Assembly: GCA_035221665.1 (NCBI GenBank)
Contig: CM069159.1
Span: 32,364,001-32,428,000, forward strand
Direction: 5' to 3'
Source of the DNA: Okamejei kenojei
Lineage: Eukaryota
Length of the DNA stretch: 64,000 nt
Shown: piece by piece, positions 10,768 through 50,271 of the stretch
Numbering within the stretch: the first letter of the stretch is position 1
Layout: each line of letters begins with the position of its first letter
The notes under the pieces: generated by a model
What the model was told of the DNA's origin: nothing
The model's input: the letters and a program-made list of their open reading frames with translations, nothing else
The model's database searches: none
Made by a program: the position numbers and the translations under genes

Positions 10768-11737
10768 GTAAGTGCTGATATTCCATCAAATCATTTGGTT
10801 ATTTCATAAAATAACAATGAAGATAAAAAGTGGAGGTTTTTCTACTGAATATACACACAAAGTGCTGTCGTAACTCAGCGGGTCAGGCAACATCGCTGGA
10901 GATAAAGGATGGGTGAAATTTCTGGTTGGGACCAGAAGAAGAGTCCCAACCCGAAATGTCGGCCATCGTTTTTCTCCAGAGATGCTGCCTGACCCGATGT
11001 TACTTTGGATCTATCTTCGGTATAATCCAACATCTGCAGTTCCTTTCTACACAGAGGTTATTCTACTGTTCAGTGAGATCCTACCAGATCTGTGACCTGA
11101 CTACATGTCCTGTCTTTTTCTCAACCTTGGAGATCAAAGATTTAAAATTAATTATTGACTGAGCGATTGCTGTTTTCTGGATTACCATTGCCCTTTGTTC
11201 ATGGAAATGTTTCCCAACTTAATATGTTCTGTAATTTATAGACTTTGCACTTTGCCCGAGAATCTCCAATCAGCATGTCATCGTGTTATGTTGGTTCTCT
11301 TTACTCTAAACCTGTTTAGTTTAGAGATACAGCGTGGAAATAGGCCATTTGGCCTACCGAGTCCGTGCCGACCTTGTACACTAACACTATCTACATGCAC
11401 CAGTGACAATTTATTATTTAACCAAGCCAATTAGCCTACAAACCTGTATGTCTTACATGATGTATTTTTATTAATGTAAAGTATAGTACTGCAATGGTAT
11501 TGATTCTTCAGCCCACAACATCCGTACCAAACATGAGGCCTGGTTAAACTAATTTCATCTGCCAGAACATGATTCATATCCCTCATTATCCATGTGCCTA
11601 TCCAAAAGCCTCTTAAAAAGCACTATTGTATCTACTTCTACCACTACCCGAGATAGCGCATTCCATGCACCCAGCATTCTCTGTGTGAAAAAAACATTCT
11701 CTGCATATCTAACCGTTAATCTTTGTTTCCTATGTAG

Positions 11738-12272
11738 CCTCAGGATTTCAGAGAACTTGGGGAATCTCGGTGTCTATGTGGCGGAGCTGCAGAAGATAGT
11801 AATTCCTCTATCGGATGATATTCATGAAAGATTCCAGACAGACAGCGCAAAGCTCGAGGAGAAGTTTCGGGAGGGCTTGAAAGAGTTCAAAGCTAAAGTC
11901 CTTCAGTACACTGAAGGTCTCCACAACAAAGTCAGCCATAATGTTGACGAGTACTGTATCATGCTAGGTCCTCTAGCTGACAATCTTAAAGAGAATGCCA
12001 AGGGATTCCAGCAAAAGTTGACCCCGTTAGCTGAAGAGCTTCAGGAGAAGATGAGGACCAACATTGAAGACTTTAACAAGAATGCAAGCCCATATGCTAA
12101 ATCAGTTCATGAGATGGTCAACCAGCAACTGGAAACCTTGCAACAGAATACTTCTCCTTACACCAGGAAATTCAAAGAACTGTTCTATGAATGCTTTCAA
12201 CATTTGAGAGTGAGATTCACCCATTTATCCCCAGACATGCAGGAGTGTCTCACTCACAAGTTGAAAACTTAG
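11738..12272 (+). CDS. apoa4: Apolipoprotein A-IV/A-I-like, last coding exon (amphipathic 22-mer repeats)
   Basis: Acceptor tttcctatgtag; (N)LRISENLGNLGVYVAELQKIVIPLSDDIHERFQTDSAKL... aligns by eye with ApoA-IV; Pro-punctuated repeats (LGPLA, LTPLA, ASPYA, TSPYT); in frame with the previous exon. Confidence 0.85.
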
Positions 12273-13112: not shown

Positions 13113-13144
13113 CTCCCTATTCAAGTTTATACAATGAACTTTGA

Positions 13145-15960: not shown

Positions 15961-16115
15961 TGTTTATCCTTGACTCCAGCCTGACGCACGTTAGGAAAGA
16001 TGGAATTTGCACTGGTTGGCCATCTCTTATCAGATGTGGGAGATAATGTCCAGCTATTAAACAGCTGGGATCTGAGCCCCACACACAAGACCAACAGAGA
16101 GTCAATAGCAAGCAG
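15961..16115 (+). promoter_or_regulatory. Putative promoter plus non-coding exon 1 of small apo-like gene copy 1
   Basis: FoxA-like TGTTTAT (15961), CRE-like TGACGCA (15982), paired GATA sites (cttatca 16026, agataa 16041), TATTAAA (16055), strong donor cag|gtaaga at 16115; conserved upstream of all three copies. Confidence 0.6.
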
Positions 16116-18215: not shown

Positions 18216-19660
18216 ATTGAACCCAAGGAAGGGAAAAAATGGGTTTTGTCTTCAAATTACTCGCGCTTGACTCTCCAGAAATAAACTTCAAGATTTAAAT
18301 CTCAACCTTTTTGGTAATGAATTGTGTGCTCAGTGAACGGTAATGTTTCTATCTGTTGATTTCTGCAGCCTTTACAGAGAGTTGGGGACCTGACACATCA
18401 TGAAGATATTCACTGTTGCTTTGGTGCTCTTGCTGGTTACAGGTACAGAAGACAAACTCTTCAAACTAACCGAAACACAATCATGAAAATGCACACGGAA
18501 AAATGTGAACGTACTAAATCGCCAGTATTGATTGCCCTCATTGACTTTCAATTTGTAGCATCTATTGATGAAGGGAGCAGTTTAGATTAGTTTAGAGATA
18601 CAGCGCGGAAACAGGGCCTTCAGCCCACCTTGTCCGCACCGACCAGCGATCCCCGCACATTAATACTATCCTACATACATCAGGGACAATTTTACATTGG
18701 TACCAAGCCAATTAACAATTGGTGGCACATCAAGGTGAGGGGGGCAGGTAACTGCTCATCTGATGGTGAGAGAGAGATCAAGTATTGCCTGAGCAACAGG
18801 AAGAACTACCTTGTTTTTTTCAAAACCTCCTTGGTCTTCTTCACAACCTCCTTGTTCTTCTTCAGAACAGGGGCAAGAGACCTTCCGTACCCACCTGAAG
18901 ACACAAGGTTTTTCTTCTCTTCCAAAAGACTATAGTAATGTTTCTCCTGGAGCCTGGATTCTCAGTGTCTGCTGGGACCACCTTTGAGGGATTTGGGAAA
19001 GGTGTTCAGAACATTTCCAAGTGATCTGGAAACTTGTTGCTTTCTTTGTTGCCATACTTCCCGCACCGAGGCCCATAGTAAGGCCAAGGATATTTGTTTT
19101 TATATTTGGGATCAAACATTTCAGCTTACTTAAGTTGCATAGCAGCAGAGTGCTAAGACTTTTCAAGGTTTCAGATTCATTGAATTTACTTGTTTAAATG
19201 GTTTGGTTTAAATGTTTGATCGACATCCTTGGCCTTATTTGGAGTTTCTGGTTAAACTATTGCCGGGAGGTGAAATTTACGCAAGCCGGGAGGAAGGGCG
19301 ATCTCTCGACGAAAAGCGGCAGAGTTGGAGTCACTGCACTTGTCGAGACGAGAGGTGGCGCTGTAGCCGTGGCAGCGCGAGAGTTTCCCGTTACATGCAC
19401 GCGGAGCTGTGACATGATTTCCCGACATAGTAAAAATGCTATTACAAAATGTGTCATAAAAGTGATGTCTCGGTGACAAATTGTCACGTTGGCTCTTCGA
19501 CCAATCGCTGGAGGATAAATGTTTGATCCCGAATATAATAAATGCTATTTACAAAATGTCGTCACTTTGTTCAGTACATCTCCGTGCAACATTCTAAAAA
19601 GTATGAAATTATATCAATCAGTGAGCTCTCTCCGATAAACCTTGTTGCCATTTGGTCGAA

Positions 19661-19975
19661 TAATAGACAATAGACAATAGGTGCAGGAGTAGGCTGCTCG
19701 GCCCTTCAAGCCAGCACCGCCATTCAATGTGATCCTGGCTGATCATCCATACTCAGTACCCCGTTCCTGCTTCTCCCCATATCCCCTGACTACGCTATCT
19801 TCAAGAGCCCTATCTAGCTCTCCCTTGAAAGTTTCCAGAGAACCGGCCTGCACCGCCCTCTGAGGCAGAGAATTCTACAGACTCACAACTCTCTGTGTGA
19901 AAAAGTGTTTCCTCATCTCAGTTCTAAATGGCTTACCCCTTATTTTTAAACGGTGGCCCCTGGTTCTGGACTCTA
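19661..19975 (-). mobile_element. CR1-type LINE 3' end
   Basis: (aatagac)n tail and CR1 3' UTR; same insertion in copies 2 (38706-39020) and 3 (48013-48325). Confidence 0.8.
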
Positions 19976-20504
19976 TCACAATATGACCTGATCACAAATG
20001 TTGTTTAATAGCACATTTTCTTAAAGGTTTTTGTGAGGTTGGATGTGGAGAAACTAAGGCCAAGGATGAGAGTTCAAAAATAAGGGGTTGCACAAGATAC
20101 AAGTTACAAGATACATTTACTTGTCACATGTGCCAGATGGCACAGTGAATTGAATCACCATACAGCCATACACTAAAATAAAGAACACAACACAAGATAG
20201 ATTTAAACATAAACCATGACTGTGATTAGCATCCGACGTCGGGCTGGAGGACAACCTGCTGGACCTGCCAACGGCCGCTTTCCGCAACTTATTCCGCGGG
20301 TGTTGTTGATGTCAATCCGGGCCCAATCCGAGCTTAGGCATCGCCCGCACCGGGTGAAAGTTGTACAACTCTGGTTTTCCCCGAGGTGAGGCTGGTAGGC
20401 CGGAGGTGGGGGCGAGGGGAGTCGCGCCCGCCGCCAGGAAGCGATCTAAGGCCTAAATAAAAAAAGAAGTGAAGGATGAGTTTCAAAGCGCCCTGTGGCA
20501 AGTG

Positions 20505-20912
20505 AAGGTTGTCCAGTGAAGCCAGAGAGTGGAATGAAATGGAAGTTTACAAAATCATGAGAGGAATAGATCGGGTAGATGCACAGTCTCTTGCACAGAG
20601 TAGGGCAATCGAGGACCAGAGGACATAGGTTCAAGGTGAAGGGGAAAAGATTTAATAGGAATCCAAGGAGTAACTTTTTCACACAAAGGATGGTGGGTGT
20701 ACGGAACAAGCTGTCGGAGGAGGTAGTAGAGGCTGGGACTATCCCATCGTTTAAAAGACAGTTGGACAGGTACATGGATAGGACAGGTTTGGAGGGATAG
20801 GGACCAAGCACAGGTAAGTGGGACGAGTGTAGCTGGGACATTGTTGGCCGGTATGGGCAAGTTGGGCCGAAGGGCCTGTTTCCACACTGTATCACACTAT
20901 GACTCTATGACT
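20505..20912 (+). mobile_element. CR1-type LINE 3' fragment
   Basis: TRGHRFKV...FFTQRMVG C-terminal ORF2 motif and (tatgactc)n tail; paralog at 39160-39566. Confidence 0.8.
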
Positions 20913-21268
20913 CCAGGAGGAGCGATATCTTCTCTCAGTGCCCTGAGTCACACTTGCGCAAAGGATGATGGGTATTTAGAGTTATTGAGTATTTTTAAGG
21001 TAACAATTCCTGCATAAAAGTTGTGAAAAGTTATCTAGGAGGCTGTGAAGGCTTTGGAGAAGGTGCAGAAGAGGTTTAACAGAAGACGGACACAAAATGC
21101 TGGAGTAACTCAGCGGGTGAGGCAGCTTCTGTGAGAAGGAATTGGCGACGTTTTGGGTCGAGGCCCATCCTGGATTAGAGAGTAATCTAATGAGGAGAGT
21201 TTGGACAAACATGGATTGGTTTCTCTGGATCTACGGAGACTGAGGGGAGCTGATAAAATTATATCAAA

Positions 21269-22252
21269 CTAGATCAAGTGGGACCCATTGGGTCTCGTTC
21301 CCCTCAATGCTTGGGGGGGGGGNNNNNNNNNNNNNNNNNNNNNNNNNNNNNNNNNNNNNNNNNNNNNNNNNNNNNNNNNNNNNNNNNNNNNNNNNNNNNN
21401 NNNNNNNNNNNNNNNNNNNNNNNNNNNNNNNNNNNNNNNNNNNNNNNNNNNNNNNNNNNNNNNNNNNNNNNNNNNNNNNNNNNNNNNNNNNNNNNNNNNN
21501 NNNNNNNNNNNNNNNNNNNNNNNNNNNNNNNNNNNNNNNNNNNNNNNNNNNNNNNNNNNNNNNNNNNNNNNNNNNNNNNNNNNNNNNNNNNNNNNNNNNN
21601 NNNNNNNNNNNNNNNNNNACACTNNNNNNNNNNNNNNNNNNNNNNNNNNNNNNNNNNNNNNNNNNNNNNNNNNNNNNNNNNNNNNNNNNNNNNNNNNNNN
21701 NNNNNNNNNNNNNNNNNNNNNNNNNNNNNNNNNNNNNNNNNNNNNNNNNNNNNNACACAAACACCCCCCTAACCACACACACNNNNNNNNNNNNNNNNNN
21801 NNNNNNNNNNNNNNNNNNNNNNNNNNNNNNNNNNNNNNNNNNNNNNNNNNNNNNNNNNNNNNNNNNNNNNNNNNNNNNNNNNNNNNNNNNNNNNNNNNNN
21901 NNNNNNNNNNNNNNNNNNNNNNNNNNNNNNNNNNNNNNNNNNNNNNNNNNNNNNNNNNNNNNNNNNNNNNNNNNNNNNNNNNNNNNCACACACAACACAC
22001 ACTAACCCCCCTACCACACGCACACACACACACTACACACACACCACCACCCCCCCCACACGCAGACACACACACTAACCATCCCCCCACACACACACAC
22101 ACACGCACACACACACCACCCCCCTCCACATACACACGCACACACACAGACCACTCCCCCACGCACACACACACTAACCAACACACAAACCACACACACA
22201 CACACACACACACACTAACCACTCCCCCCCCACCACACACACACACACACAC
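21269..22252 (-). repeat. (CA)n/cacactaaccac minisatellite with assembly gaps, bounded by a Helitron-like 3' end
   Basis: CTAG at 21269 next to the hairpin gacccattgggtc; N runs; CA-rich repeats. Confidence 0.7.
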
Positions 22253-22778
22253 AGGAGGGGCAAAGATTAAAGGGGCAAGGTCTTTACACAGAGTGGTGTG
22301 TGTCTGCAATGCACTGCCAAGGGTGATTGTGGGAGATATTATTATAATTATTGTTATTATTATTGATATGATAATGATGTTTAAGAGGCTTTTAGGCACA
22401 TGAACAAATGTGCAGGAACCGCAGGGATAGGCAGAGGAGATTAGTTGAACTTGGCATCCTGTTCAAAGCACACATTTTGGTACACGTGACAATGAACTAA
22501 ACTGAACTGAACTGGGGAACCGCAGGCTGTGGCAAGACTATTTTGGGGCCCTATCATGTGCAAATTATGACCACTATTTAAACAAAGAGTGCACTTCAAA
22601 AATATTCTATTTATTGATTTTCAAGTTCCTTGGGATATCCTACAGCTGTGAAAGATGATAACGATATACATTGCTTAATGTATAAGAAGTGACTTTCAGG
22701 GTCAAATTGTTAGAGGAATTCAGACTGGTTGAGAATCAAGAAGGGTTTGTATAGAGCCTAAACACTGGTTTGAATGGG

Positions 22779-23085
22779 CGGCACGGTGGCGCAGCAGTAG
22801 AGTTGCTGCTTTACAGCACCAGAGACCCAGGTTCGATCCTGACTACGGATCCTGTACGTACTTTGTACGTGCTCCCCGTGACCTGCGTGGGTTGTCTCTG
22901 GGTGCTCTGGTTTCATCCCACATTCCAAAAACGTACAGGTCTTTGTCTTTTTATTTAAGATGCTTGGTCGATTTAATTGCAAATCGTCCCTAGTGGGTGG
23001 GGGATAGTATTAGTGTACTGGGATCGCTGGGTAGCGCGGTGGGCCGAAGGGCCTGTTTCCATGCTGTATAACTCAACTAAACTAA
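22779..23085 (+). mobile_element. tRNA-derived SINE in the last intron
   Basis: ggcacggtggcgcagcagtagag...ggttcgatcc head and actaa tail; also at 42048-42354 and 49168-49475. Confidence 0.8.
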
Positions 23086-24160
23086 GGCGTGCTCGTGTGT
23101 CCTTTCTTAATGCTTACCTCATTGTATTTTAACCCTCTGAAGAAGGAAGCTGACAAGGCGTGACAACCTGGCATTGATTGGAGAGCTTTCGATTGATGCG
23201 TGATACTGCTTTAAGCTTTGGCACAAGAACTGAAGCAAGAGTTCTACATTGCTCAATACATTAGTAACAAGCTTGATATGCTCCAATCGATATTAACTAC
23301 TGTTGGTGAAGACCTGCATGAAGAACTTGGCAGTGAAGCCTACGCCAAAATACATGATCAGCTGGTGTCAATCCACAAAAACATTAAACAGTACCGCCAC
23401 CAGAATGAGACCCGGCACCACCACCTTTAACCACACAATCGCGGGCAACACCGAGAAAATTGAAGAATGGCCGAGGAGAGATGCTCTTTACGGAGACCCT
23501 ACGAGAAATATACGAGCTGCTGTTGTTGATGAACTGTTTCTCCACACGGTTTGCTGCCGTCTTTAATGTAGCAAACTGAATTGCTGATTTGATTTGAATT
23601 TCAATTTTTATAAAGTATATTTGGTTATAAAGGGCAATGAAATTCTTATGTTCAGGAAGGAACTGCAGATGCTGGTTTACACCGAAGGTAGACACAAAAA
23701 GCTGGAGTAACTCAGCGGGTCAGGCAACATCTCTGGAGAGCAGGGATGGGGGACGTTTTGGGTTGAGACCCTTCTTCAGACATTATGCCTTGTAGAACTT
23801 TATTTTAATTGAAAATTACTATTAAACAATGCGTCTTTGATCTAAATCTCTCTGTATTGTCTTTTCCATATTTCATCAATTCAAAATTAATTTTCATTAA
23901 AAATGTTACTAATGATGGTTCAGCTTCGACTGCGGGTGGGAGATTGCGACCTTCACGTGGTCCGCCCTGTTTCAACTACTGCAATCAACTCGACGTGCAC
24001 AAACAAGATCAAATAGAACAAGTTGACCTACAACTTTAGGCTGTGCTCGCCATACGCAAGGAGAAGATCCTACTGCGATCTAGGTGCAATTCCCAATTTA
24101 GTTCACGCCTGATAAAAATGTTTTGAAGGTGGATTTGCTTTCAGATCTCCCTAGTTTGTG

Positions 24161-24900: not shown

Positions 24901-25220
24901 AAGGTTTTAGTCGAGACCCTTCTTCAGATTGAAAAAAAAGTCACGTTGACAAAAAATACGACAGAACATTTCCTGCTCTTGAAATTGAAATTTTACTTTA
25001 GTTTATTGATGTCACGTGTACCAAGGTAAGGTTACAGTGAAAAGCTTTGTACAAGACTTCATGTACAAGCAACTTTTGGATCAGTTGTGAACTAGAGTCT
25101 GGAGATTGGAGGTGTGGCAACAGTTGTACTCAAGTCTAGGAATGGATCTAAGGTGTATCTGAGTCCTGGAACGTTCAAGATAAAATTGAGACACAGAATG
25201 ACCATCTCACTGTTACAAAT

Positions 25221-25391
25221 GAGGAGAAGTTCCGGGAGGGCTTGAAAGAGTTCAAAGCTAAAGTCCTTCAGTACAATGAAGGTCTCCACAACAAAGTCAG
25301 CCATAACGTTGAAGAGTACTGTATCACACTAGGTTCTCTAGCTGACGATCAGAAGGAGAATGCCAAAGGATTCCAGCAAAAGTTGACCCCG
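25221..25391 (+). pseudogene. Duplicated internal fragment of the ApoA-IV-like last exon
   Basis: EEKFREGLKEFKAKVLQYNEGLHNKVSHNVEEYCITLGSLADDQKENAKGFQQKLTP, near-identical to 11856-12026; no acceptor or upstream exons. Confidence 0.9.
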
Positions 25392-25667: not shown

Positions 25668-26617
25668 GATGTTCAACATCTCCAAGTTTGCAGATGACAC
25701 GAAGCTGGGGGGCAGTGTTAGCTGTGAGGAGGATGCTAGCAGGCTGCAAGGTGATTTGGTTAGGTTGGGTGAGTGGGCAAATGCATGGCAGATGCAGTAT
25801 AATGTGGATAAATGTGAGGTTCTCCACTTTGGTGGCAAAAACAGGAAAGTAGGCTATTATTTGAATGGTGGCCGATTAGGAAAAGGGGGAGATGCAACGA
25901 GACCTGGGTGTCATGGTACACCAGTCATTGAAAGTAGGCATGCAGGTGCAGCAGGCAGTGAAGAAAGCGAATGGTATGTTCGCATTCATAGAAAAAGGAT
26001 TTGAGTATAGGAGCAGGGAGGTTCTGCTTCGATTGTACAGGGTTTTGGTGAGATCACACCTGGAGTATTGGGTACAGTTTTGGTCTCCAGATCTGAGGAA
26101 AGACATTCTTGCCATAGAGGGAGTACAGAGAAGGTTCACCAGTCTGATTCCTGGGATGTCAGGACTTTCATATGAAGAAAGACTGGATAGACACGGCTTG
26201 TACTCGCTAGAATTTAGAAGATTGAGGGGGGATCTTATAGAAAATTACAAATTTCTTAAGGGGTTGGACAGGCTAGATGCAGGAAGATTGTTCCCAATGT
26301 TGGGAAACTCCAGGACAAGGGGTCACAGTTTAAGGATAAGGGGGAAATCTTTTAGGACCGAGATGACAAAACATTTTTCACACAGAGAGTGGTGAATCTC
26401 TGGCATTCTCTGCCACAGAAGGTAGTTGAGGCCAGTTCATTGGCTATATTTAAGAGGGAGTTAGATGTGGCCCTTATGGCTAAAAGGATCATGGGGTATG
26501 GAGAGAAGGCAGGTACAGGATATCGAGTTGGATGATAAGCCATGATCATATTGAATGATGGTGCAGGCTCGAAGGGCCGAATGGCCTACTCCTGCACGTA
26601 CTTTCTATGTTTCTATG
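25668..26617 (+). mobile_element. 5'-truncated CR1 LINE (RT C-terminus and 3' UTR)
   Basis: SKFADDTKLGG...WQMQYNVDKC, RSHLEYWVQFWSP, TRGHSL motifs; (tttctatg)n tail. Confidence 0.92.
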
Positions 26618-27950
26618 AAAGCTGTTGTCACAAAGAACATTTCCATTGGCTATTACAAACTATCTGGGTGTTGGAGGAATGATGTTATAAATATGCCATG
26701 ACTTTAAAGAGTCCACAATTGTAGATTACCATATGATGGGCATCCTGAACACTCTTTGCCATTTGATTTACAGCCCCATTAATGTGATTTAATGCACATA
26801 ATAAAGTTGAAGAGGGGGTTTCAGTAGCTTTGCTTAACTGCAGACTTCATCGACAATTATCCGCAACATGTTCATGTGGATATCATTTCATCTGAACTCA
26901 ACTGATCAATACTCGGTATCTGCTTATCCCACTTTATCCACTTGCAATCAGAAACAGGAATGTTTTATACTGTTTTGGACACAAAGTGCTGGAGTAACTC
27001 AGCAGGTCAGGCAGCATCTCTGAAGGAAAAGGATGGGTGACGTTTCGGGTCGAAACCATTTCTCCAGATACCTTCCCTAGATTTCCACCGAAAATGTCAG
27101 CCATCCTATATCTCCAGAGATGCTGCCTGACACGCTGAGTTACTCCAGCAATTTGTGTCCATGTTGCAGGCCATAATGTCGGTATAGACCAGCATCTGCA
27201 GTTCCTCCCTATTCAAGTTTATACAATGAACTTTGAGGCACAGCGGTGCAGCTGGTAGAGCTGCTGCCTCACAGGGATCCAGGTGCGATCATGACCTTGG
27301 TTGCTGTCTGTACGGAGTTTTCATGTTCTCCCTGCGACCACATGGGTTTTCTCCAGGTGTTCCGGTTTCCTCCCACGTCCCGAAGACATGTGGGATTGTC
27401 GGTTAATTGGCCTGAAAATGGGATAATTTTGAACCCGTGTGAACAAGTGATAGATGGTTGGTGTGGACTCGGTGGGCCGAAGGCCTTTTTCCGTGCAGTA
27501 CCTTTGAAATGACCGGAACTAACAAAAACAAATGGCGCAGAAATGATAGAGATAACATTTTGGTTCTGTCTACAAGGACGAGAACACAAATAACATCCCA
27601 CAGAAATACTACAGAACCAAAAGACTAATGAAAAGGAAGACAGAAAGGAAATTAGTCTGAATGATAAAAAAGTAACGCTGGATAAAATAATGGGATTGGC
27701 TGTTGGTAAATCCTGGGGCCTGATGATCTACATCCAGGCTATTTAAAGAGAGAAACATAGAAATAGTGGACACATTTGTTATCATCTTTCAAATGTTTAT
27801 AGACTTCCGGTGGCGCTATGGAGGGCTAGAGGATAACGCCAGCCAGCTCCGCGCAAATAACGGGAAAAAAACGGGGATTTACGGACCTACCTGCTGCCTG
27901 CCGTCTCTGCACCGATTGTTGTGAGTGACGTCATCAGGCGCGCGACTAGT

Positions 27951-33585: not shown

Positions 33586-36500
33586 GGTCAAAATGGCTCA
33601 GTGCGGAGGCTTTGAATGAGGCTTGAATAATGGATGGATGTAGAATTACTATAAAAAAATATCAAATGGTTATATCTCCGACGAAGGGATAATTGTTTAA
33701 ATACATTCATTTCCTTACTTTCTATATTATTTTTCTCTATCTTTTCCTACTTTATAAAAAATTAAAAATAATGTATAGATACATAAAGTCTTAAATATTA
33801 ATATTAATAATATTATGAATGTCTGTAAGAAGTACTTTTTATTAATATGTATTTACAACTAATAAAAAATATTTATCAAATGTTTATAGATTATGGAATA
33901 TTTGCTGCTGATTGGAAGGTGGTAAATTAATAACAGGAGGGAGAGAGAAAACCGGGAACTGCAGACCATTAGCGCGACATAATTAGGAAGGGAAAATAAA
34001 ATGTGCAGAGGGTATTAACAGGATTAGACAAAGTCAGGTTGGATTTATGAAAGATGAATTACAGTATGTTTGACAAACTAGCGAAGTCTTTGGGGATGTA
34101 ACAGAAGAGATAACGGTGAAGGAGTGGATATGCTACATGTGGATTTCCAGAAGGCCTTTGCTTGTGTCCCATGTAAGAGATTAGTGTGCAAAAGTAAAGC
34201 ACATGGGATTGGGAGTGTGGGGGGGGGGGGGGGGAGAGGTGGGGAATTTGGAGCACAGGTACCCCTTTGGTAAAAAAATGTAGGTATGTTTTAATTTTGT
34301 TTAGACCTTGGGAAAATGTTGCGGGTACAAATTGAACCTGGCTGTTTTGTACGCCAGCCACTGAACTGCCAGCCAGCCACAGGAGGGGAAAGGCAAGAAG
34401 AGCGTCAATGAGTACGTTTGCCATCATTGCAAATATGTTGTGAGGCACGGGCAAGAATGACGAGGGGACAATTTGGAAGAAGGCTATAAACCCCCCAAAA
34501 CTGGAGCCCCGGAGAAAACCCACGTGGTCACAAGGAAGAACGTACACACTCCTAGCAGGGACTGCACAAGTGGTCACGATCGAACCCGGGTCTCTGGCGC
34601 TAACCACCCTGACACCATTTTGGTACGCTTTTTTCTATTCACTGATTTTAAAATGTAGCGAAATAGTTTAAAAGAGGTACCTTCATAACCCTAGCTTTAT
34701 TTTTACAAATGTAATTTCAAATATTAATAGACATCTGTTTTTCTTCATAGCCCTTTCTATTGAAACAAACGGGCAATGTGTTTTTTTTTTATCATTTGCA
34801 AAATTGTTGCCAATATTGATTTTAGGGCAGTTGCATTTTATATTGACCATGATGTAAGAGTTTGTATTGGAACCGTTCCCTCGATCTCGTGCTTGGTAGG
34901 GTTGAGGATCAGGGACACGTGGCTGGAGACATTTTGGTGGGTGTAAGGTCCAGCAGTGGGGAGAAGTCAATTGCAAGGCAGAAACAAGGTGGAGGCCGGC
35001 ACACAACGCAAAATCCAGAAACCTCAGGAGCACATATGTCAGCCTGGAATCACGGGAAGGAACCAGTGTTTGGCTGAAATCCTGCCAAAGCTCTTTGTCA
35101 GTCACACACCCACAGGAGACAAAAGATCACGGTGAATAGAAGTTAGCATTTGAGCAGGGAAGCAGAGAGGAAAGGGAGCGGGGGTTAGGTTTGAGGTAGA
35201 CAGAAATGCTGGAGAAAACAGCGGGTGAGGCAGCCATTCTATGGAGCGAAGGAAATGGGCAACGTTTCGGGTTCGAAACCCTTTTCAGACTTCGAACACA
35301 AAATGTTCCTTTGCTCACCTCACCCTGCGTGAGTTTTCGTCCCAGCATTTCAGCATTTGTTACAAAGGGTTTTATGTGGACTATAATTCTTGGTAAGCAT
35401 TTCTCAGCAGCATCCGCAGCACCTGGTATGTTCTTTACACTAATAATGGGTGATTTTTATTGAATGGGACCAACCACTGGTTTCACACGGGGTTCTATGA
35501 AGATGACTCCTGGGGTGATGTGAAAGATGAGGAATATTTGCCAGTTCAGTTCCACACAAAAAACTGCATCTTAAATTAGATTATTTGGTGATGATAGAAT
35601 TCAATTACTGGCCTTAAGTGAAGCAAGGTGATGTAGGTGTTGTGTCTCCTCTGTCACATCCAGTAAATTCCAGGGACCTTTGGTTTGGGCCAGACTACAT
35701 TCAATATCCAATCATCCCTTGAATTGTTGTCCCTTTCATCAGTTGGCCAAACGAAGAACGAAGGCAACAGAGGAGATGGGGAGGATCCCACCTTGTCAAC
35801 TCTTGATGGACTGCCAGTAAGGATAAGTATAGATGGGTCTGGAAAAGATCAGTTACTGGAGCAAGAAACCTTGGTTGGGTTGATTTTTAAGTAAATTGAG
35901 GAGTGAGGGCTGGCGAAATGAGGTTGAGATTCACAATGCGCTGATGTGACCCGTCAGATCCATTGATGGAAATAATCAAATGAGATGCTCTCAGTTGTGC
36001 TCCAGCACCCCCCACCTTACTAACGCCTTCATTTCCCAAACATGCAGGTGAGACCAATTAGAATCTTTGAGGGTCTTTCAAGGGGAAATGTCTCGATCAG
36101 AGAGGTTGATGGGCATTAGTTGTGAACTAGAGTATGGGGACTGGAGATGTGGCAACAGTTGTACTCAAGTCTTGGATCTTCGGTGTATCGAGTACTGGAA
36201 TGTTCAAGTAAAAATTGAGACACAGAAATGACCATCTCACTGCTACAAACGTGGCTTTGACCTGTTGTGTGTGTGTTCCACAAGCCCAGGATTAGAACAT
36301 GACCAGGTATTTTACAAAGTAGAGGTTTAGTCAAAATGTGACATTTATTCCTTGCTTACTTACTTGGGCAAAATTGTAAAATAGGTGGGGGAATTCAACT
36401 GTGTAGGAAGGAACTGCAGATGCTGGTTTAAACCAAAGATAGACAAAAAAAAAGGCTGGAGTAAGTCAGGGGTCAGACAGCATCTCTGGTGAGAAGAATG

Positions 36501-36664
36501 GGTGACGTTTCGGGTCAAGACCTTTCTTTCAGACTGAGAAGGGTCTCGATCCGAAACGTCACCTATTCCTTTTTTCCCTAGATACGCTGCCTGAGCCGCT
36601 GAGTTACGCCCAACTTTTTGTGTCAATTTCCAGCATATATTTGCTGGACACAAACACTGAAAGA

Positions 36665-36830
36665 TGTTTATCCTTGACTCCAGCCTGACGGCACGTTAGG
36701 AAAGATGGAATTTGCACTGGTTGGCCATCTCTTATCAGATGTGGGAGATAATGTCCAGCTATGTTTAAAACAGCTGGGATCTGAGCCCCACACCAAGACC
36801 AACAGAGAGTCAATAGCAAGCACGGGGTAG
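36665..36830 (+). promoter_or_regulatory. Promoter/exon 1 paralog for copy 2 (TATA and donor appear corrupted)
   Basis: Homologous to 15961-16115 but with indels (atgtttaaaa; cacggggtagag) in a noisy region. Confidence 0.45.
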
Positions 36831-37913
36831 AGGGATTTTTTTTCTACTTCAGGCCGCACGGGAAGAAGACTGTGTAAAGTAGGAACTTTTTGATATTTCT
36901 GATATTCAGGATATTTCTCAAACTGAGTGCACTGGGTGTCACCAGGTCACATTGACTGGGGCACACTGGGACCAGTCCCAGCCAAGGTCGAGTCGGTTAG
37001 TCCAAGTGGGTGCAATGATAAGGACTCTTCTAACATCGTCAACACCTCTGAGAAAGATAGAGAACACACAGAGGTTTTCCATTCCTGGCTGTTGTAAAGA
37101 TCCCGAGGTCTGAATGTGATAAGTTTGCAGATCCTGAAGCTAATGGTGAGGACACTGCGAAGGCACAGTGGCACAGTGACTGCCTTTCAGCCCCCGACAC
37201 CCCGGTTCAGGTGACTACGGGTGCTGTCTGTATGGAGTTTGTACGTTCTCCCTGTGACCGTGTGGGTTTTATTCAGGTGCTCTCGTTTCCAAAGACGTGC
37301 AAGGTTGTATGTTAATCGGCTTTGGTAAATTAGTGTGTCGTAGTGTGGTGGAGAGAACTAGTGTTTGGGTGATTGTTGGTCAGCACGGACTTTGTGGGCT
37401 GAAGGGTCTGTTTTGCACATGCCGATAGGATGTCCCATCTACACTAGTCCCACCTGCCTGCCTTTGGCCCATATCCCTCTAAACCTTTCCTATCCATGTA
37501 CCTGTCTAAATGTTGTTAAAGTACCTGCCTCAACTACCTCCTCTGGCAGTTCATTCCATAAACCTACCTCCTTTAATGTAAAGAAAGATGCCCTTCTGCT
37601 TTCTAGTAAATGTTCCCCTCTCACCTTAAACCTATGTCCTCTGGTTCCTCAGTTCCCTACCCTGGATAAAAGGCTTTGCATTTACGCTATCTATTCCCCT
37701 AATGATGAAGGACAAAGGCTGGGTTTTTAAAGACAGGTAGTAGGAAGATTGAAGGGAAAGGTTGTCAAATTACTCGCGCTTGTCTCCAGAAATAAACTTC
37801 AAGATTTAAATCTCAACCTTTTTGGTAATGAATTGTGTGCTCAGTGAACGGTAATGTTTCTATCTGTTGATTTCTGCAGCCTTTACAGAGAGTTGAGGAC
37901 CTGACCTACCATC

Positions 37914-37956
37914 ATGAAGATATTCACTGTTGCTTTGGTGCTCTTGCTGGTTACAG
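37914..37956 (+). CDS. Small apolipoprotein-like secreted protein copy 2, signal-peptide exon
   Basis: Acceptor tttctgcag upstream, accatcATG, MKIFTVALVLLLVTG (43 nt, phase 1), donor g|gtacag. Confidence 0.85.
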
Positions 37957-38504: not shown

Positions 38505-38658
38505 GATCGCAGGGTGCAGTCATCCCTGCAGATAAGAGTCTGCAGGAAGATTCAACGGAATGGGACACTCCTTTGAGGGATTTGGGAAAGATCGGGGAAG
38601 AAATTGTGGACGTTGCCTGGGACAAATTGTCCAGTTGCACTTTGTTCAGAACATTTGC
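38505..38658 (+). CDS. Small apolipoprotein-like protein copy 2, middle coding exon
   Basis: tttctccatag| GSQGAVIPADKSLQEDSTEWDTPLRDLGKIGEEIVDVAWDKLSSCTLFRTFA |gtaagt; 154 nt, phase 1-2. Confidence 0.85.
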
Positions 38659-42411: not shown

Positions 42412-42691
42412 AAGGAGGCTGACAGGTCCTGGCAATGATTGGAGAACATTTGGATTAATCTTGATACCTTTAAGCGAATGGGCACGAGAACTGAAGCAAG
42501 AGTTCTACATTGCTCAATACATTAGTAACAAGCTTGAAATGCTCCCATCAATATTAACTACTGTTGGTGAAGACCTGCATGAAGAACTTGGCAGTGAAGC
42601 CTACGCCAAAATACATGATCAGCTGGTGTCAATTCACGAAAACATTAAACAGTACCGCCACCAGAATGAGACCCGGCACCACCACCTTTAA
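42412..42691 (+). CDS. Small apolipoprotein-like protein copy 2, last coding exon (158-aa product)
   Basis: Acceptor ccctctgaag; in frame RRLTGPGNDWRTFGLILIPLSEWARELKQEFYIAQY...NETRHHHL*; 43+154+280=477 nt. Confidence 0.8.
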
Positions 42692-45120
42692 CCACACAAT
42701 CGCGGGCAACACCGAGAAAATTGAAGAATGGCCGAGGAGAGATGCTCTTTACGGAGACCCTACGAGAAATATACGAGCTGCTGTTGTTGATGAACTGTTT
42801 CTCCACACGGTTTGCTGCCGTCTTTAATGTAACAAACTGAATTGCTGATTTGATTTGAATTTCAATTTTTATAAAGTATATTTGGTATAAAGGGCAATGA
42901 AATTCTTATGTTCAGGAAGGAACTGCAGATGCTGGTTTACACCGAAGGTAGACACAAAAAGCTGGAGTAACTCAGCGGGTCAGGCAACATCTCTGGAGAG
43001 CAGGGATGGGGCACGTTTTGGGTTGAGCCTTCTTCAGACATTATGCCTTGTAGAACTTTATTTTAATTGAAAATTACTATTAAACAATGCGTCTTTGATC
43101 TAAATCTCTCTGTATTGTCTTTTCCATATTTCATCAATTCAAAATTAATTTTCATTAAAAATGTTACTAATGATGGTTCAGCTTCGACTGCGGGTGGGAG
43201 ATTGCGACCTTCACGTGGTCCACCCTGTTTCAACTACTGCAATCAACTCGACGTGCACAAACAAGATCAAATAGAACAAGTTGACCTACAACTTTAGGCT
43301 GTGCACGCCATACGCAAGGAGAAGATCCTACTGCGATCTAGGTGCAATTCCCAATTTAGTTCACGCCTGATAAAAATGTTTTGAAGGTGGATTTGCTTTC
43401 AGATCTCCCTAGTTTGTGCGGCACGGTGGTGTAGCGGTAGAGTTGCTGCCTTACCGCACTGGCAGCGCCAGAGACTGGGTTCGATCCCGAGCTGTCTGCA
43501 CGGAGTTTGCATGTTTGCCCCGTGACCGCATGGGATTTCTGTGAGATCTTCGCTTTCCTCCCCCACTCCAAAGTACAGGTTTGTAGGTTAATTGGCTTGG
43601 GAGAAGTGTAAATTGGCCCTAGTGTGTGTAGGATGGTGTTAATGTGCGGGGATCGCTGGTCATAGTGGACTGTGTGGGCCGAAGGGCCTGTTTATACGCT
43701 GTACCTCTAATCGAAACTAAACTAATCTATTCAGACTGCTGCTGAGCTGGGTAAACCTGTACGTCTTTGGAGTGTGGGAAGCAACCGAAGATCTCGGAGA
43801 AAACCCACGCAAATCACGGGGAGAAGATACAAACTCCGTACAGACAGCACCCGAAGGGCCTGTTTATACGCTGTACCTCTAATCGAAACTAAACTAATCT
43901 ATTCAGACTGCTGCTGAGCTGGGTAATGGAAGTGATGTTGGACACTAGAGCTCTACAGAGGTACATGAATGCTGGAGCTGTGTGGACGGGGCTCAAGGCA
44001 TCGTGCCTAATAACAGGGAACGGCATCAAAAGAAAATGTCGCTGGTGTTGACCCAATGACTTTCTGGGCCGATCAATAAAAACATCAAGCTCGACACAAA
44101 CAGCTCTAGTAACTCATCGCTTCAGGTAGCATCTCTGGAGAAAAGGAATAGGTGATGTCACCGTGGCACAGCTGTAAAGTTGCCGGCCAAGTCCCGGTTC
44201 GATCCTGACTACGGGTGCATTTGATTTAGTTTTAGAGATACAGCATGGAAACAGGCCCAACGGGTCCGCGCCGACCCCCGATCCCCGCACATTAACACCA
44301 TCCTACACACACTAGGGATAATTTACCTACAAATCTCTGGAGTGTGGGAAGCAACCGAAGATCTCGGAGAAAACCCACGCAAATCACGGGGAGAACATAC
44401 AAACTCCGTACAGACAGCACCCGCAGTCAGGATTGAACCCTGGTCTCTGCCGCTGCAAGCGCTGTAAGGCAGCAACTCTACCCCAGTGCCACCATGTGGA
44501 CTGTCAGCAAGGAGTCTGTACATTTTCCCTGTGACCGTGTGGGTTTTCTCCGGGTGCTCTGGTTTCATCCCACACTCCAAAGACGTTCAGATTTGTGGGC
44601 TAATTGGCTTTGGTAAATTTGTCCCTCGTGTGTGTAGGATAGTGTTAGTGTGGGGGATCGCTGGTCGGCACGGACTCGGTGGGCTGAAGGGCCTTTTTCT
44701 GCGCTGTATCTCTAAACAAAAAAATAAAATGGTTTGGTGTTGAGAGGCAACATTTCCAGCTCTTGAAATTGAAATTTTACTTTAGTTTATTGTTGTCACG
44801 TGTACTGAGGTTAGGTTACAGTGAAAAGCTTTGTTTGTACAAGATTTCATGTGCAAGCAACTTTTGGATCAGCTATGAACTAGAGTCTGGAGATTGGAGG
44901 TATGGCAACAGTTGTACTCAAGTCTAGGAATGGATCTTAGGTGTATCCGAGTCCTGGAACGTTCAAGATAAAATTGAGACACAGAATGAAGATCTCACAG
45001 TTACAAACGTGCTTTGACCTTTTGTGTGTGTTCCACAAGCTCAGAGATTAGAACATGACCAGGCATTTTACAAAGTAGGGTTTCCTCAAAATTAACATTT
45101 ATTTCTTGCTTATATTACTT

Positions 45121-45712
45121 AGAAACATAGAAACATAGAAAATAGGTGCAGGAGGAGGCCATTCGGCCCTTCGAGTCAGCACCGCCATTCATTGTGATCA
45201 TGGCTGATCGTCCGCTATCAATAACCCGTGCCTGCCTTCTCCCCATATCCCTTGACTCCACTAGCCCCTAGAGCTCTATCCAACTCTCTCTTAAATCCAT
45301 CCAGTGATTTGGCCTCCACTGCCCTCTGTGGCAGGGAATTCCATAAATTTACAACTCTCTGGGTGAAAAAGTTTTTTCTGACCTCAGTCTTAAATGTCCT
45401 CCCCTTTATTCTAAGACTGTGGCCCCTGTTTCTGGACTCGCCCAACATTGGGAACATTTTTCCTGCATCTAGCTTGTCCAGTGCTTTTATAATTTTATAT
45501 GTTTCTACAAGATCCCCCTCATCCTTCTAAACTCCAGTGAATACAAGCCTAGTCTTTTCAATCTTTCCTCATATGATAGTCCCGCCATCCCAGGGATCAA
45601 TCTCGTGAACCTACGCTGCACTGCCTCAATCACAAGGATGTCCTTCCTCAAATTCGGAGACCGAAACTGTACACAATACTTCAGATGTGGTCTCACCAGA
45701 GCCCTATACAAC
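45121..45712 (-). mobile_element. CR1 LINE 3' fragment
   Basis: [12 protein letters not shown]...RGHSLRIKG...FFTQRVVNLWNSLP; (catagaaa)n tail; unit C only. Confidence 0.9.
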
Positions 45713-46044
45713 TACACATGAATTTGGGATGCAGAACAGCTGGGCTCTGAGCCCCAGACACAAGACTTGGCATACTGTAAAATCAGGTGGGGGAATTCAA
45801 CTGAGTAGGAAGGAACTGCAGATGCTGGTTTAAACCAAAGATAGACAAAAAAAAAGCTGGAGTAAGTCAGCGGGTCAGACAACATCTCTGGAGAGAAGGA
45901 ATGGGTGACGTTTCGGGTCAAGACTTCTTGATCCAAAACGTCACCTGTTCCATTTTTTCCAGAAACGCTGCCTGAGCCGCTGAGTTACGCCAACTTTTTG
46001 TGTCAATTTCCCGCTACTGTTTGCTGGACACAAACACTGAAAGA

Positions 46045-46199
46045 TGTTTATCCTTGACTCTAGCCTGACGCACGTTAGGAAAGATGGAATTTGCACTGGT
46101 TGGCCATCTCTTATCAGATGTGGGAGATAACGTCCAGCTATTAAACAGCTGGGATCTGAGCCCCACACACAAGACTGACAGAGAGTCAATAGCAAGCAG
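46045..46199 (+). promoter_or_regulatory. Putative promoter plus non-coding exon 1 of copy 3
   Basis: TGTTTAT, TGACGCA, two GATA sites, TATTAAA 46139-46145, donor cag|gtaaga at 46199. Confidence 0.6.
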
Positions 46200-47207
46200 G
46201 TAAGAGGGATTTTTTCTACTCTGCGCGGGAAGAAGACTGGTAAAGTAGGAACTTTTTGTTCAGTGATATTTCTGGTATTCAGCACCCGAAATGTCCTGAT
46301 TACCAGAATATTTCTCAAAATGAGTGTGCTGGGTGTCACCAGGTCACATTGACTGGGGCACACTGGGACCAGTCCCAGACAAGGTAGTCGGTTAGTCCAA
46401 GTAGGTGCAATGATAAGGACTCTTCTAACATCGTCAACACCTCTGAGAAAGATAGAGAACACACAGAGGTTTTCCATTCCTGGCTGTTGTAAAGATCCCG
46501 GGGTCTGAATGTGATAAGTTTGCAGATCCTGAAGCTAATGGTGAGGACACTGCGAATGCACAGTGGCACAGCGACTGCCTTTCAGCCCCCGACACCCCGG
46601 TTCAGGTGACTACGGGTGCTGTCTGTACGGAGTTTGTACGTTCTCCCTGTGACCGTGTGGGTTTTTTCCTGGTGCTCCGGTTTCCTCCCACACTCCAAAG
46701 ACGTGCAAGGTTGTATGTTAATTAGCTTCGGTAAATTGTCGCTTGTGTGGAGGATGGAACTAGTGTTTGGGTGATTGTTGGGCAGCACGGACTCCGTGGG
46801 CTGAAGGGTCTGTTTTGCACATGCCGATAGGATGTCCCATCTACACTAGTCCCACCTGCCTGCCTTTGTCCCATATCCCTCTAAACCTTTCCTATCCATG
46901 TACCTGTCTAAATGTTGTTAAAGCTTCAATGTGTTGAGAAACCAATATTGGATAAGTTAAAAGATGAGTGGTAAAGAGAACATTAAAAATGATAATATGA
47001 GGAAATGAACCCAAGGAAAGTGGAAAAAATGGTTTATTGTTTGTCCAAGTCTTCGAGCATCGCTAATTACTCGCGCTTGTCTCCAGAAATAAACTTCAAG
47101 ATTTAAATCTCAACCTCTTTGGTAATGAATTGTGTGCTCAGTGAACGGTAATGTTTCTATCTGTTGATTTCTGCAGCCTTTACAGAGAGTTGGGGACCTG
47201 ACACATC

Positions 47208-47250
47208 ATGAAGATATTCACTGTTGCTTTGGTGCTCTTGCTGGTTACAG
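47208..47250 (+). CDS. Small apolipoprotein-like protein copy 3, signal-peptide exon
   Basis: MKIFTVALVLLLVTG, identical to copies 1 and 2. Confidence 0.85.
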
Positions 47251-47798
47251 GTACAGAAGACAAACTCTTCAAACTAACCGAAACACAATCATGAAAATGC
47301 TCACGGAAAAATGTGAACGTACTAAATCGCCAGTATTGATTGCCCTCATTGACTTGCAATTTGTAGCATCTATTGATGAAGGGAGCAGTTTAGTTCAGTT
47401 TAGAGATACAGCGCGGAAACAGGGCCTTCAGCCCACCTTGTGCGCACCGACCAGCGATCCCCGCACATTAATACTATCCTACATACATCAGGGACAATTT
47501 TACATTGGTACCAAGCCAATTAACCATTGGTGACACATCAAGGTGAGGGGGGCAGGTAACTGCTCATCTGATGGTGAGAGAGAGATATATCAAGTATTGC
47601 CTGAGCAACAGGAAGAACTGCATTGTTTTTTTCAGAACCTTGTTGGTCTTCTTCACAACCTCGTTGTTCTTCTTCAGAACAGGGGCAAGAGACCTTCCGT
47701 ACCCACCTGAAGACACAAGGTTTTTCTTCTCTTCCAAAAGACTATAGTAACAGCCTGGATTCTCGTGCCTCTCAGTGTTTTCCAATGTTTCTCCATAG

Positions 47799-47952
47799 GA
47801 TCGCAGGGTGCAGCCATCCCTGCAGATAAGAGTCTGCAGGAAGATTCAACGAGATGGGACACTCCTTTGAGGGATTTGGAAAAGATCGGGGAAGAAATTG
47901 TGGACGTTGCCTGGGACAAATTGTTCAGTTACACTTTGTTCAGAACATTTGC
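47799..47952 (+). CDS. Small apolipoprotein-like protein copy 3, middle coding exon
   Basis: GSQGAAIPADKSLQEDSTRWDTPLRDLEKIGEEIVDVAWDKLFSYTLFRTFA with canonical AG/GT. Confidence 0.85.
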
Positions 47953-48500
47953 GTAAGTATTCAAAGTGATCTGGAACTTGTTGCTTTAACCTACCTTGTT
48001 GCCATCTGGTCTAATAGACAATAGACAATAGGTGCAGGAGTAGGCTGCTCGGCCCTTCAAGCCAGCACCGCCATTCAATGTGATCCTGGCTGATCATCCA
48101 TACTCAGTACCCCGTTCCTGCTTCTCCCCATATCCCCTGACTACGCTATCTTCAAGAGCCCTATCTAGCTCTCCCTTGAAAGTTTCCAGAGAACCTGCCT
48201 CCAGCGCCCTCTGAGGCAGAGAATTCTACACACTCACAACTCTCTGTGTGAAAAAGTTTCCTCATCTCAGTTCTAAATGGCTTACCCCTTATTCTTAAAC
48301 TGTGGCCCCTGGTTCTGGACTCTGTCACAATATGACCTGACCACAAATGTTGTTTAATAGCACTGATGTATAGATTATTGTTATCCCACACACATCAGGG
48401 ACAATTTTACATTGGTACCAAGCCAATTAACCATTGGTGACACATCAAGGTGTGGGGGGCAGGTAACTGCTAATCTGATGGTGGGGGGTGGGGGGGGGAA

Positions 48501-48900
48501 GAGAGAGAGAGATCGAGATCGAGAGAGAGAGATCGAGAGAGAGAGAGATCGAGAGAGAGAGAGAGAATCGAGAGAGAGAGAATCGANNNNNNNNNNNNNN
48601 NNNNNNNNNNNNNNNNNNNNNNNNNNNNNNNNNNNNNNNNNNNNNNNNNNNNNNNNNNNNNNNNNNNNNNNNNNNNNNNNNNNNNNNNNNNNNNNNNNNN
48701 NNNNNNNNNNNNNNNNNNNNNNNNNNNNNNNNNNNNNNNNNNNNNNNNNNNNNNNNNNNNNNNNNNNNNNNNNNNNNNNNNNNNNNNNNNNNNNNNNNNN
48801 NNNNNNNNNNNNNNNNNNNNNNNNNNNNNNNNNNNNNNNNNNNNNNNNNNNNNNNNNNNNNNNNNNNNNNNNNNNNNNNNNNNNNNNNNNNNNNNNNNNN
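48501..48900. repeat. (GA)n/GAGAGATC microsatellite plus assembly gap
   Basis: Direct reading. Confidence 0.9.
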
Positions 48901-49532
48901 CAGGAAGAACTGCAGGCTGTGGCACGACTATTTTGGGGCCCTATCAAGTGCAAATTGTGACCACTTTTTAAACAAAGAGTACACTTCAAAAATATTCTAT
49001 TTATTGATTTTCAAGTTCCTTGGGATATCCTACGGTTGTGAAAGATGATAATGATATACATTGCTTAATGTATAAGAAGTGACTTTCAGGGTCAAACTTT
49101 TAGAGGAATTCAGACTGGTTGAGAATCAAGAAGGGTTTGTATAGAGCCTAAACACTGGTTTGAATGGGCGGCACGGTGGCGCAGCAGTAGAGTTGCTGCT
49201 TTACAGCACCAGAGACCCAGGTTCGATCCTGACTACAGATCCTGTACGTACTTTGTACGTGCTCCCCGTGACCTGCGTGGGTTGTCTCTGGGTGCTCTGG
49301 TTTCATCCCACATTCCAAAAACGTACAGGTCTTTGTCTTTTTATTTAAGATGCTTGGTCGATTTAATTGCAAATCGTCCCTAGTGGGTGGGGGATAGTAT
49401 TAGTGTACTGAGATCGCTAGTTGGTGCAGTGGGCCGAAGGGCCTGTTTCCATGCTGTATAACTCAACTAAACTAAGGCGTGCTCGTGTGTCCTTTCTTAA
49501 TGTTTACCTCATTGTCTTTTAACCCTCTGAAG

Positions 49533-49818
49533 AACGAAGCTGACAAGGCGTGACAACCATTGGACACAATTGGCCTTTCGCTTGATGCGTGATATATCTG
49601 CTTTGGCAGATGAGCTGACGTCGCAAGAGTTCTTCATTGCGCAATACATTAGTAACAAGTATGAAATGCTCCAATCGATATTAACTACTGTTGGTGAAGA
49701 CCTGCATGAAGAACTTGGCAGTGAAGCCTACGCCAAAATACATGATCAGCTGGTGTCAATCCACGAAAACATTAAACAGTACCGCCACCAGAATGAGACC
49801 CGGCACCACCACCTTTAA
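49533..49818 (+). CDS. Small apolipoprotein-like protein copy 3, last coding exon (160-aa product)
   Basis: ccctctgaag| TKLTRRDNHWTQLAFRLMRDISALADELTSQEFFIAQY...NETRHHHL*; 43+154+286=483 nt. Confidence 0.8.
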
Positions 49819-50271
49819 CCACCCAATCGCGGGCAACACCGAGAAAATTGAAGAATGGCCGAGGAGAGATGCTCTTTACGGAGACCCTACGAGAAATATA
49901 CGAGCTGCTGTTGTTGATGAACTGTTTCTCCACACGGTTTGCTGTCGTCTTTAATGTAGCAAATTGAATTGCAGATTTGATTTGAATTTCAATTTTTATA
50001 AAGTACTAGACTAAGTGGGACCCAGAATCACACGGGAGGGCTGGTCACCCAATGCAATATTTCGCCTCTCCACCAATTCCAATATTGCTGGCCAGTGGGT
50101 GGGGGGGGGGGGTCACTTTGACCCACAACACACCAGTCCCTTTGACCCACATCACACATCTGGAGCACTAGTATGTGTGTTGTGGGTCAAAGGGACTGGT
50201 TTCCAGAGGGCTAGTATGGGCATTGTGGGCCGAATGGATTCTTGGGCTGGGAGCTCAGTCACTCTGGCCAG

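Follow-up and report, generated by a model that had tools for sequence, protein, structure and literature searches.

A window of 64,000 nucleotides (nt) from the Okamejei kenojei genome (contig CM069159.1, positions 32,364,001 to 32,428,000 of the forward strand) was analyzed, and comparison of the window with itself revealed three tandem units of a short apolipoprotein-like gene, referred to here as copies 1, 2, and 3. Besides these, genome DNA and protein searches returned one distant paralog only, and such counts are lower bounds. Each unit comprises coding exons of 43, 154, and 280 (copy 2) or 286 (copy 3) nt with GT-AG ends, separated by introns of phases 1 and 2. The frames of copies 2 and 3 are open and give products of 158 and 160 residues, respectively; the signal peptide was called by eye. 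A stretch of N breaks intron 3 of every copy, and the sequence runs without a break from copy 2 exon 4 to the first exons of copy 3. The last coding exon (exon 4) opens with a patch of 29 or 30 codons that comes in two versions, type 2 in copy 2 and type 3 in copy 3, and this patch is the subject of the analysis. The parts of the two copies are as follows (window positions):

37914..37956, + strand: copy 2 first coding exon, signal-peptide-like, with a GT donor; its N terminus matches the proteins of the parent gene described below
38505..38658, + strand: copy 2 exon 3; its last 30 bases occur as a spliced loose end in sequencing run X6
42412..42691, + strand: copy 2 last coding exon, an open frame, placed by translation and copy comparison
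42412..42499, + strand: type 2 variable patch, codons 1-29 of copy 2 exon 4, placed by alignment and contigs of runs X1 and X6
46139..46199, + strand: copy 3 putative TATA-like box and non-coding first exon, with a GTAAGA donor at 46200, as read from the sequence
47208..47250, + strand: copy 3 first coding exon; its 14 whole codons are identical to those of copy 2
47799..47952, + strand: copy 3 exon 3; six differences from copy 2, each amino-acid-changing
49533..49818, + strand: copy 3 last coding exon, an open frame with a histidine-rich tail
49533..49623, + strand: type 3 variable patch, codons 1-30 of copy 3 exon 4, found exactly in run X1

A preliminary description had reported a hypervariable patch amid near-identical sequence, and comparison of copies 2 and 3 bore this out: the patch has 23 mismatches in 86 positions plus 8 gap openings, whereas the eight other segments compared differ by 0.9-3.9% (Fisher p 7e-15). 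The peptides it gave for 42413 and 49534 translate exactly as reported, and the frame-keeping net difference of 6 nt agrees with patch lengths of 88 and 94 nt. Its wording that the patches are "barely alignable" fits the protein, in which 9 of 28 residues are identical, but not the DNA, in which 56 of 87 bases match codon by codon; the other 31 differ, and two single-codon gaps were placed to maximize identity. Because the DNA can be aligned codon by codon, the two versions are homologous, diverged segments. The type 3 patch has the same length as its counterpart in the parent gene. The peak of coding divergence is narrow and the flanks are little diverged, but the peak has shoulders, with 15 mismatches among the 210 flanking bases closest to the patch versus 18 in 798 further off (p 0.0015), and elevated variation extends beyond the patch to codon 48. 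Two other accounts were rejected: a foreign cassette, given that 64% is alignable and lower-bound searches of this genome found no donor, and a pseudogene family, given the open frames, the splicing, and a 160-residue counterpart in another genus.

Both patch types are real and present in RNA contigs. Contigs of four public runs were placed on 49478-50000; 15 of the 26 pieces are listed, contigs merge variants, and a filter leaves some contigs out. DNA run X1, which may be the assembled sample, reproduces 49478-49691 of copy 3 with no differences (depth 38), and two further contigs leave 49478-50000 through loose ends equal to the copy 2 patch over its first 9 and last 15 bases (depths 106 and 64, respectively); the middle of the copy 2 patch from X1 cannot be placed on 49478-50000. 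Run X6, from another sample and study under the same species label, holds both types. One of its contigs joins the end of exon 3 directly to 49533, which indicates splicing at the predicted acceptor, and a loose end matches the end of the copy 2 patch at 28 of 30 bases. An assembly error, which the preliminary description had named as a ground for refutation, can be discarded for copies 2 and 3, because X1 matches type 3 exactly and type 2 at its ends, and X6 contains both.

The runs also revealed variation within type 3. X6 contains a further variant with nine differences in 49597-49677, a variant with a stop codon seven residues before the end, and a type 3 patch preceded by an exon 3 end of the copy 2 type; this pairing points either to exons reshuffled between copies or to assembly mispairing across the N stretches. 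DNA run X9, from a species designated species C, gave one contig across the stretch with 24 differences (22 of them listed) and a type 3 patch with seven changes. Run X8 covers 49604-49764 and 49868-50000 and, of the patch, the last 20 bases only. Besides the difference between types, at least three amino-acid changes in type 3 separate two samples of one species label. Three amino-acid changes are common to X6 and species C but occur in neither X1 nor the assembly; shared polymorphism, a recent mutation of the allele in the assembly, or a mislabeled sample would each fit this. In a second sample of the X6 study (X21), the sampled words were all missing, which hints weakly at expression restricted to certain tissues. 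Full homogenization, read from the single 3' contig of X1, was considered and dropped, as contigs merge variants and the flanks are star-like.

The two patch types differ at a nonsynonymous rate (dN) of 0.53 and a synonymous rate (dS) of 0.34, a ratio of 1.6 (range 1.6-1.8 among the five best placements of the gaps), and the differences fall 7/14/10 over the three codon positions. Synonymous differences number 5.5 in 20 sites (95% interval of their proportion, pS, 0.10-0.49), and dS in the patch is roughly tenfold the divergence of the flanks. A dS of 0.34 implies that the types separated long before the flanks, unless nearly all synonymous counts hitch-hiked in multi-hit codons, and types older than their flanks imply that conversion or import also acted. 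In alignment columns 67-96, which hold the patch, 9 of 28 residues are identical between types, and 9/30 and 6/28 are identical to a short Rhinoraja protein introduced below, type 2 being no closer to it than type 3; in columns 115-150, later in exon 4, 22 of 36 are identical. The parent proteins keep 18-23 of 30 residues in the patch columns (five pairwise comparisons), and rapid change is thus peculiar to this one segment of the short paralog.

Species C gave a second view of the same region. All seven of its patch changes from copy 3 alter the protein. Over codons 1-48, a range picked after the data were seen, there are 11 amino-acid-changing bases in 115 sites versus 9-11 in 295 non-coding and synonymous sites, a neutral yardstick that is mostly 3' untranslated region (UTR) and possibly constrained (p 0.010-0.027); codons 49-94 have two amino-acid changes versus the 11 in codons 1-48 (p 0.023). 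Outside the patch, copy 2 has 9 private changes, copy 3 has 5, and species C has 10 in 392 sites, so that the paralogs differ from each other at 14 sites and from species C at 15 and 19. In the exon 4 tree, the type 2 branch has a length of 0.33 and type 3 none, on a weakly supported node (85/69). The preliminary description had offered localized diversifying selection or segmental exchange from other paralogs. The former is suggested by the second codon positions, the excess of dN over dS, and the species C excess, which point to a patch diversified by selection, although dN over dS within the patch does not reach significance; for the latter, no donor was found in this genome by our lower-bound searches. 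The scenario it had set against itself, an old patch in younger flanks, is partly what we see, in that patch dS is about ten times the overall divergence of the flanks.

Structure predictions were made for the Rhinoraja protein and copy 3 exon 4. The models are all-helical and agree in placing a short loop and one helix in the patch, at residues 7-29. The hydrophobic moments of the patch are 0.54 and 0.47 in the two types, compared with 0.42-0.51 in the parent. Eight positions lie within 70 degrees of the hydrophobic axis and have a mean BLOSUM score of 3.0 between types, whereas the other 11 average -0.2 (p 0.027). W10, A25, and L28 are common to the Rhinoraja protein, and four of the five within-type changes in the patch helix lie off the hydrophobic face. 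The predicted picture is of a hydrophobic face that is kept and a polar face that changes. On the question of an apoE- or apoA-I-like helix-bundle fold, Foldseek and VIA-align returned generic helical matches only (model predicted local distance difference test [pLDDT] 57), and the ESM Atlas search with protein P0018 gave low scores only.

Several of these results weigh against selection for change on the polar face. The structure models are weak, with a pLDDT of 57 for the Rhinoraja protein and 70 for copy 3 exon 4; the Rhinoraja helix is less amphipathic (0.27); and conservation of a hydrophobic face is expected of any amphipathic helix. Within the patch the excess of dN over dS is not significant, as 17% of bootstraps were at or below zero and the 95% interval of pN-pS (the difference between the nonsynonymous and synonymous proportions) was -0.14 to 0.30. 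Variants pooled gave 16 nonsynonymous to 3 synonymous (p 0.44), and outside the patch copies 2 and 3 have 10 nonsynonymous and 3 synonymous differences, a near-neutral ratio that fits relaxed constraint. With 69 nonsynonymous and 21 synonymous sites, a seven-of-seven result by itself has a 16% chance of arising, and the species C excess is not significant over the whole of exon 4 (p 0.13). Given the 9/5/10 private changes, copy 2, copy 3, and species C are about equally far apart outside the patch, and the paralog flanks do not clearly resemble each other more closely than ortholog flanks do. No type 2 contig is among the pieces listed for species C, and contigs cannot prove absence.

The distant paralog, which we call the parent gene, lies at window-relative 77.7-82.5 kb, 28-33 kb beyond copy 3, and encodes 210 residues. 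Its last exon is 58-78% identical to proteins of 193-229 residues from Amblyraja, Leucoraja, Rhinoraja, and Mobula, and the batoid models of this lineage (210-229 residues; XP_032905913, XP_055516569, XP_078282798, and XP_062894298) are labeled "uncharacterized" or "apolipoprotein E-like". The copies align to the first 150 residues of the parent and are 30-50% identical to the parent proteins; in their 3' UTR, a different frame still specifies 40 residues from the parent C-terminal part:

49805..49924, + strand: parent C-terminal remnant of copy 3, other frame, mostly 3' UTR, found with P0007 as tblastn query (35-37% identical across 40 residues) and by DNA alignment
42678-42797 and 23417-23536: equivalent C-terminal remnants in copy 2 and copy 1, respectively

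From this alignment and the out-of-frame remnant, the sequences show the short gene as a descendant of the neighboring 210-residue gene by duplication and a C-terminal frameshift. An exhaustive search found a Rhinoraja protein of 160 residues with a similar tail (LOC144608743, XP_078282909; 49% identity, E 4e-19) and a Leucoraja model (XP_055516447) that ends in a similar histidine-rich tail, and these two relatives indicate that the short form is old. The Leucoraja model (P0019) looks like a chimera in which an apoA-IV-like exon is joined to the final part of the last exon of the short gene; the short gene there may therefore be broken or mis-annotated. The same search also matched P0020 and P0021 (E 7e-5 and 7e-4; more than 2,000 residues). 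When exon 4 was used in word-based protein searches, no relative emerged among proteins of 51-165 or 166-2000 residues, blanks that mean little because the exhaustive search did find relatives. In each of the three genera, the tail born of the frameshift (49781-49818 in the window; P0018 and P0019) combines a high histidine content with an N-x-T/S sequon, which may be a novel feature for glycosylation or metal binding. The X6 stop variant, at 49795, deletes it. In a literature search of titles and abstract beginnings, with most subscription journals outside its reach, the truncated skate gene was not described; in databases it is present only as an uncharacterized model.

The apolipoprotein scaffold named in the preliminary description was supported by a profile of the family (A4; 18 rows of short and parent proteins, mostly parent), which matches apoA-IV at E 4e-12, ahead of apoA-I (E 3e-4) and apoE (E 4e-3), and aligns the patch columns near the apoA-IV N terminus. 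The "apoE-like" database label is automatic, and the profile favors apoA-IV. Homology to the exchangeable apolipoproteins was thus found indirectly, via the parent proteins and the profile. Direct matches to PF01442 above the curated cut-off were absent from exons 3 and 4 of either copy, the exons being scanned separately; parent exon 4 reaches E 8e-6 and 26 bits, below the cut-off of 90; and Pfam found nothing credible in the short-gene exons (CEP44, E 0.013; CAAP1, 0.08). Exchangeable apolipoprotein genes have a short signal-peptide exon, a second coding exon, and a long last exon, with intron phases 1 and 2, and the skate gene has a signal-peptide-like exon and the conserved intron positions. 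A gene with the domain itself sits directly upstream of the short-gene copies:

11733..12272, + strand: last exon of the neighboring apoA-I/A-IV/E-domain gene (PF01442, E 4.7e-31, above the cut-off); its product resembles Leucoraja XP_055516447 ("apolipoprotein A-IV-like") in the N-terminal part of that protein

Between copies 1 and 2, positions 25182-25383 and 26607-27522 hold a duplicated apoA-IV-like last-exon fragment and 916 downstream bases, the latter 98% identical to 12515-13430. The duplicated fragment indicates that the duplication unit started within the neighboring apolipoprotein gene. A LINE-like element with broken frames (about 27.9-32 kb) follows this block. ZPR1 and at least three PF01442 genes lie at 23.96-24.0 Mb of the same contig, 8.4 Mb from the present group (32.37-32.45 Mb), and the apolipoprotein cluster appears to be split in two. 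Ahead of the window by 7-8 kb is a Gln/His-rich open reading frame of 310 codons (L048:2077-3006), which may resemble the end of SIK3; the ESM Atlas search, with low scores only, gave no confirmation. A GC-rich tandem repeat at contig positions of about 32309200-32310600 is open in several frames on both strands.

Copy 1 is in poorer condition:

18400..23430, + strand: copy 1, with an intact first coding exon, a garbled exon 3 (about 18935-19030), and a frameshifted exon 4

Its patch is 96 nt long, out of frame, and alternates 3-2-3-2-3-2 between the types in short blocks, in surroundings rich in small gaps; no such mosaic contig is among the X1 pieces listed. Copy 1 is likely to be a consensus artifact over a second type 2 copy. 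Its role as a real donor or intermediate was set aside as unlikely, given five switches in 96 nt, a length beyond that of both types, and its absence from the X1 contigs that passed the filter. Comparison of 13555-16486 with 34274-37198 showed that small gaps are frequent, with as many as 10 openings per 100 columns, which suggests low consensus quality in the duplicated upstream region. The putative first-exon donor of copy 2 (36735-36850) is disrupted relative to copies 1 and 3, in a small-gap-rich stretch that is possibly assembly noise.

Known systems resemble the skate gene in part. Like apoA-I, apoA-IV, and apoE (PF01442), it has the exon layout and a predicted helical, amphipathic product, adjoins a PF01442 gene, and lies on a contig with ZPR1 and further apolipoprotein genes. 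Unlike them, it encodes a short protein without a PF01442 match, has lost the C-terminal repeats by frameshift in favor of a histidine-rich tail, and occurs in tandem copies with one hypervariable helix; the batoid parent protein, by contrast with the short gene, is not hypervariable in the patch columns. A divergence peak with shoulders in converted duplicates is a known and modeled pattern and the published mark of a selected site (PMC3924837, which also cites RHD/RHCE). In the primate long- and middle-wave (LW/MW) opsins described there, the peak is narrow and coding, introns resemble each other more between paralogs than between orthologs, and the two types were traced across species. The skate genes are likewise near-identical tandem paralogs with a narrow coding peak, but the flank pattern is weak (14 versus 15 and 19 in 392 sites) and type 2 was found in one species label only. 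Carp apoA-I and apoA-II are reported to be antibacterial in vitro, as cited in PMC3666997. Similarly to teleost apoA-I and apoA-II (apo-14 kDa), the skate protein is a small, predicted amphipathic apolipoprotein, but it is not orthologous to them as far as compared. A hypervariable helix in teleost apoA-I or apoA-II was not reported in the literature searched.

The explanation that we favor, which we hold to be about evenly poised between right and wrong, is that selection for difference acts on the polar face of the patch helix and that conversion or import gave young flanks around an old patch. The protein would be secreted, judging by homology and exon layout, and would bind lipid through the conserved hydrophobic faces of its helices, leaving the polar face of the patch helix to meet a partner that itself changes. 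That partner would most likely be a microbe or parasite surface, as has been proposed for fish apoA-I/A-II, and less likely a host receptor or lipase; a yolk role was also considered. The microbial or parasite partner is a first guess from the reported antibacterial activity of the carp proteins (cited in PMC3666997), and a recognition or effector role is possibly what the gene performs. Gene conversion may have replaced the sequence on both sides of the patch in an older duplicate, or may have copied the type 2 segment into a younger one, and either event would leave the type 2 segment much older than its flanks; selection would have maintained the difference between types despite conversion.

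The same age contrast could arise if the patch were an old, loosely constrained island, its helix drifting near neutrally while divergence and indels block conversion and the flanks are overwritten, an explanation that we judge somewhat unlikely. It accommodates the patch dS of 0.34, a dN/dS not significantly above 1, the near-neutral 10 to 3 outside the patch, and the stop variant of X6, and indels with divergence are known to stop conversion (PMC3924837). It leaves unpredicted the amino-acid excess between orthologous type 3 segments (p 0.01-0.03), the second positions changing most, and the three or more amino-acid changes between samples of one species label, and the parent gene shows no such looseness in these columns. 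A one-off import of a tract of about 90-150 bases into a young duplicate, from a lost diverged paralog or another skate lineage, would dispense with lasting selection; flanks of roughly the same age as the split from species C around a patch about ten times older, and the lack of type 2 among the species C pieces listed, are in its favor. We nevertheless regard it as quite improbable, because the lower-bound searches of this genome found no donor, the parent is too distant (4 of 28 residues), the Rhinoraja protein is as far from type 2 as from type 3 or farther, and fast change within type 3 would go unexplained.

A burst of positive selection in a recent duplicate, without conversion, would have given copy 2 about 28 changes and two codon deletions. 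Star-like flanks, the long type 2 branch (0.33, against none for type 3), and the concentration of most synonymous counts in multi-change codons speak for such a burst. Flank divergence, however, predicts fewer than one synonymous difference where 5.5 in 20 sites are seen, one serine codon differs at all three positions, and the tree node is weakly supported (85/69), and we find the proposal very doubtful. Least credible is an assembly artifact, or two alleles of one locus set in tandem, despite error-like stretches, with 3-10 gap openings per 100 columns over much of the sequence that precedes copies 1 and 2, a garbled copy 1, and the N in intron 3 of each copy. Public contigs of two samples hold both types, unbroken sequence joins copy 2 exon 4 to the first exons of copy 3, and the X1 depths of 64-106 for type 2 versus 38 for type 3 fit units at about 2:1, although contig depth measures copy number only weakly. 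The divergence would still be genuine if the two were alleles.

Beyond the favored explanation of selection on the polar face, a bolder reading, which we consider unlikely, makes the apoA-IV-derived carrier a highly expressed, multi-copy, polymorphic innate-defense protein, with its exposed helix selected and reshuffled by conversion and its variants shared across species in the manner of major histocompatibility complex or resistance genes. Because nearly all change between the copies falls on one predicted helix face, the locus offers a natural swap experiment, in which the proteins are alike save for 30 residues. If the two types behave alike, the patch would be a clean, conversion-resistant neutral island that mimics selection. 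If they differ in microbial killing or binding, the skate gene would be an apolipoprotein scaffold under arms-race evolution, and it would provide a direct test of fish apolipoproteins as immune effectors.

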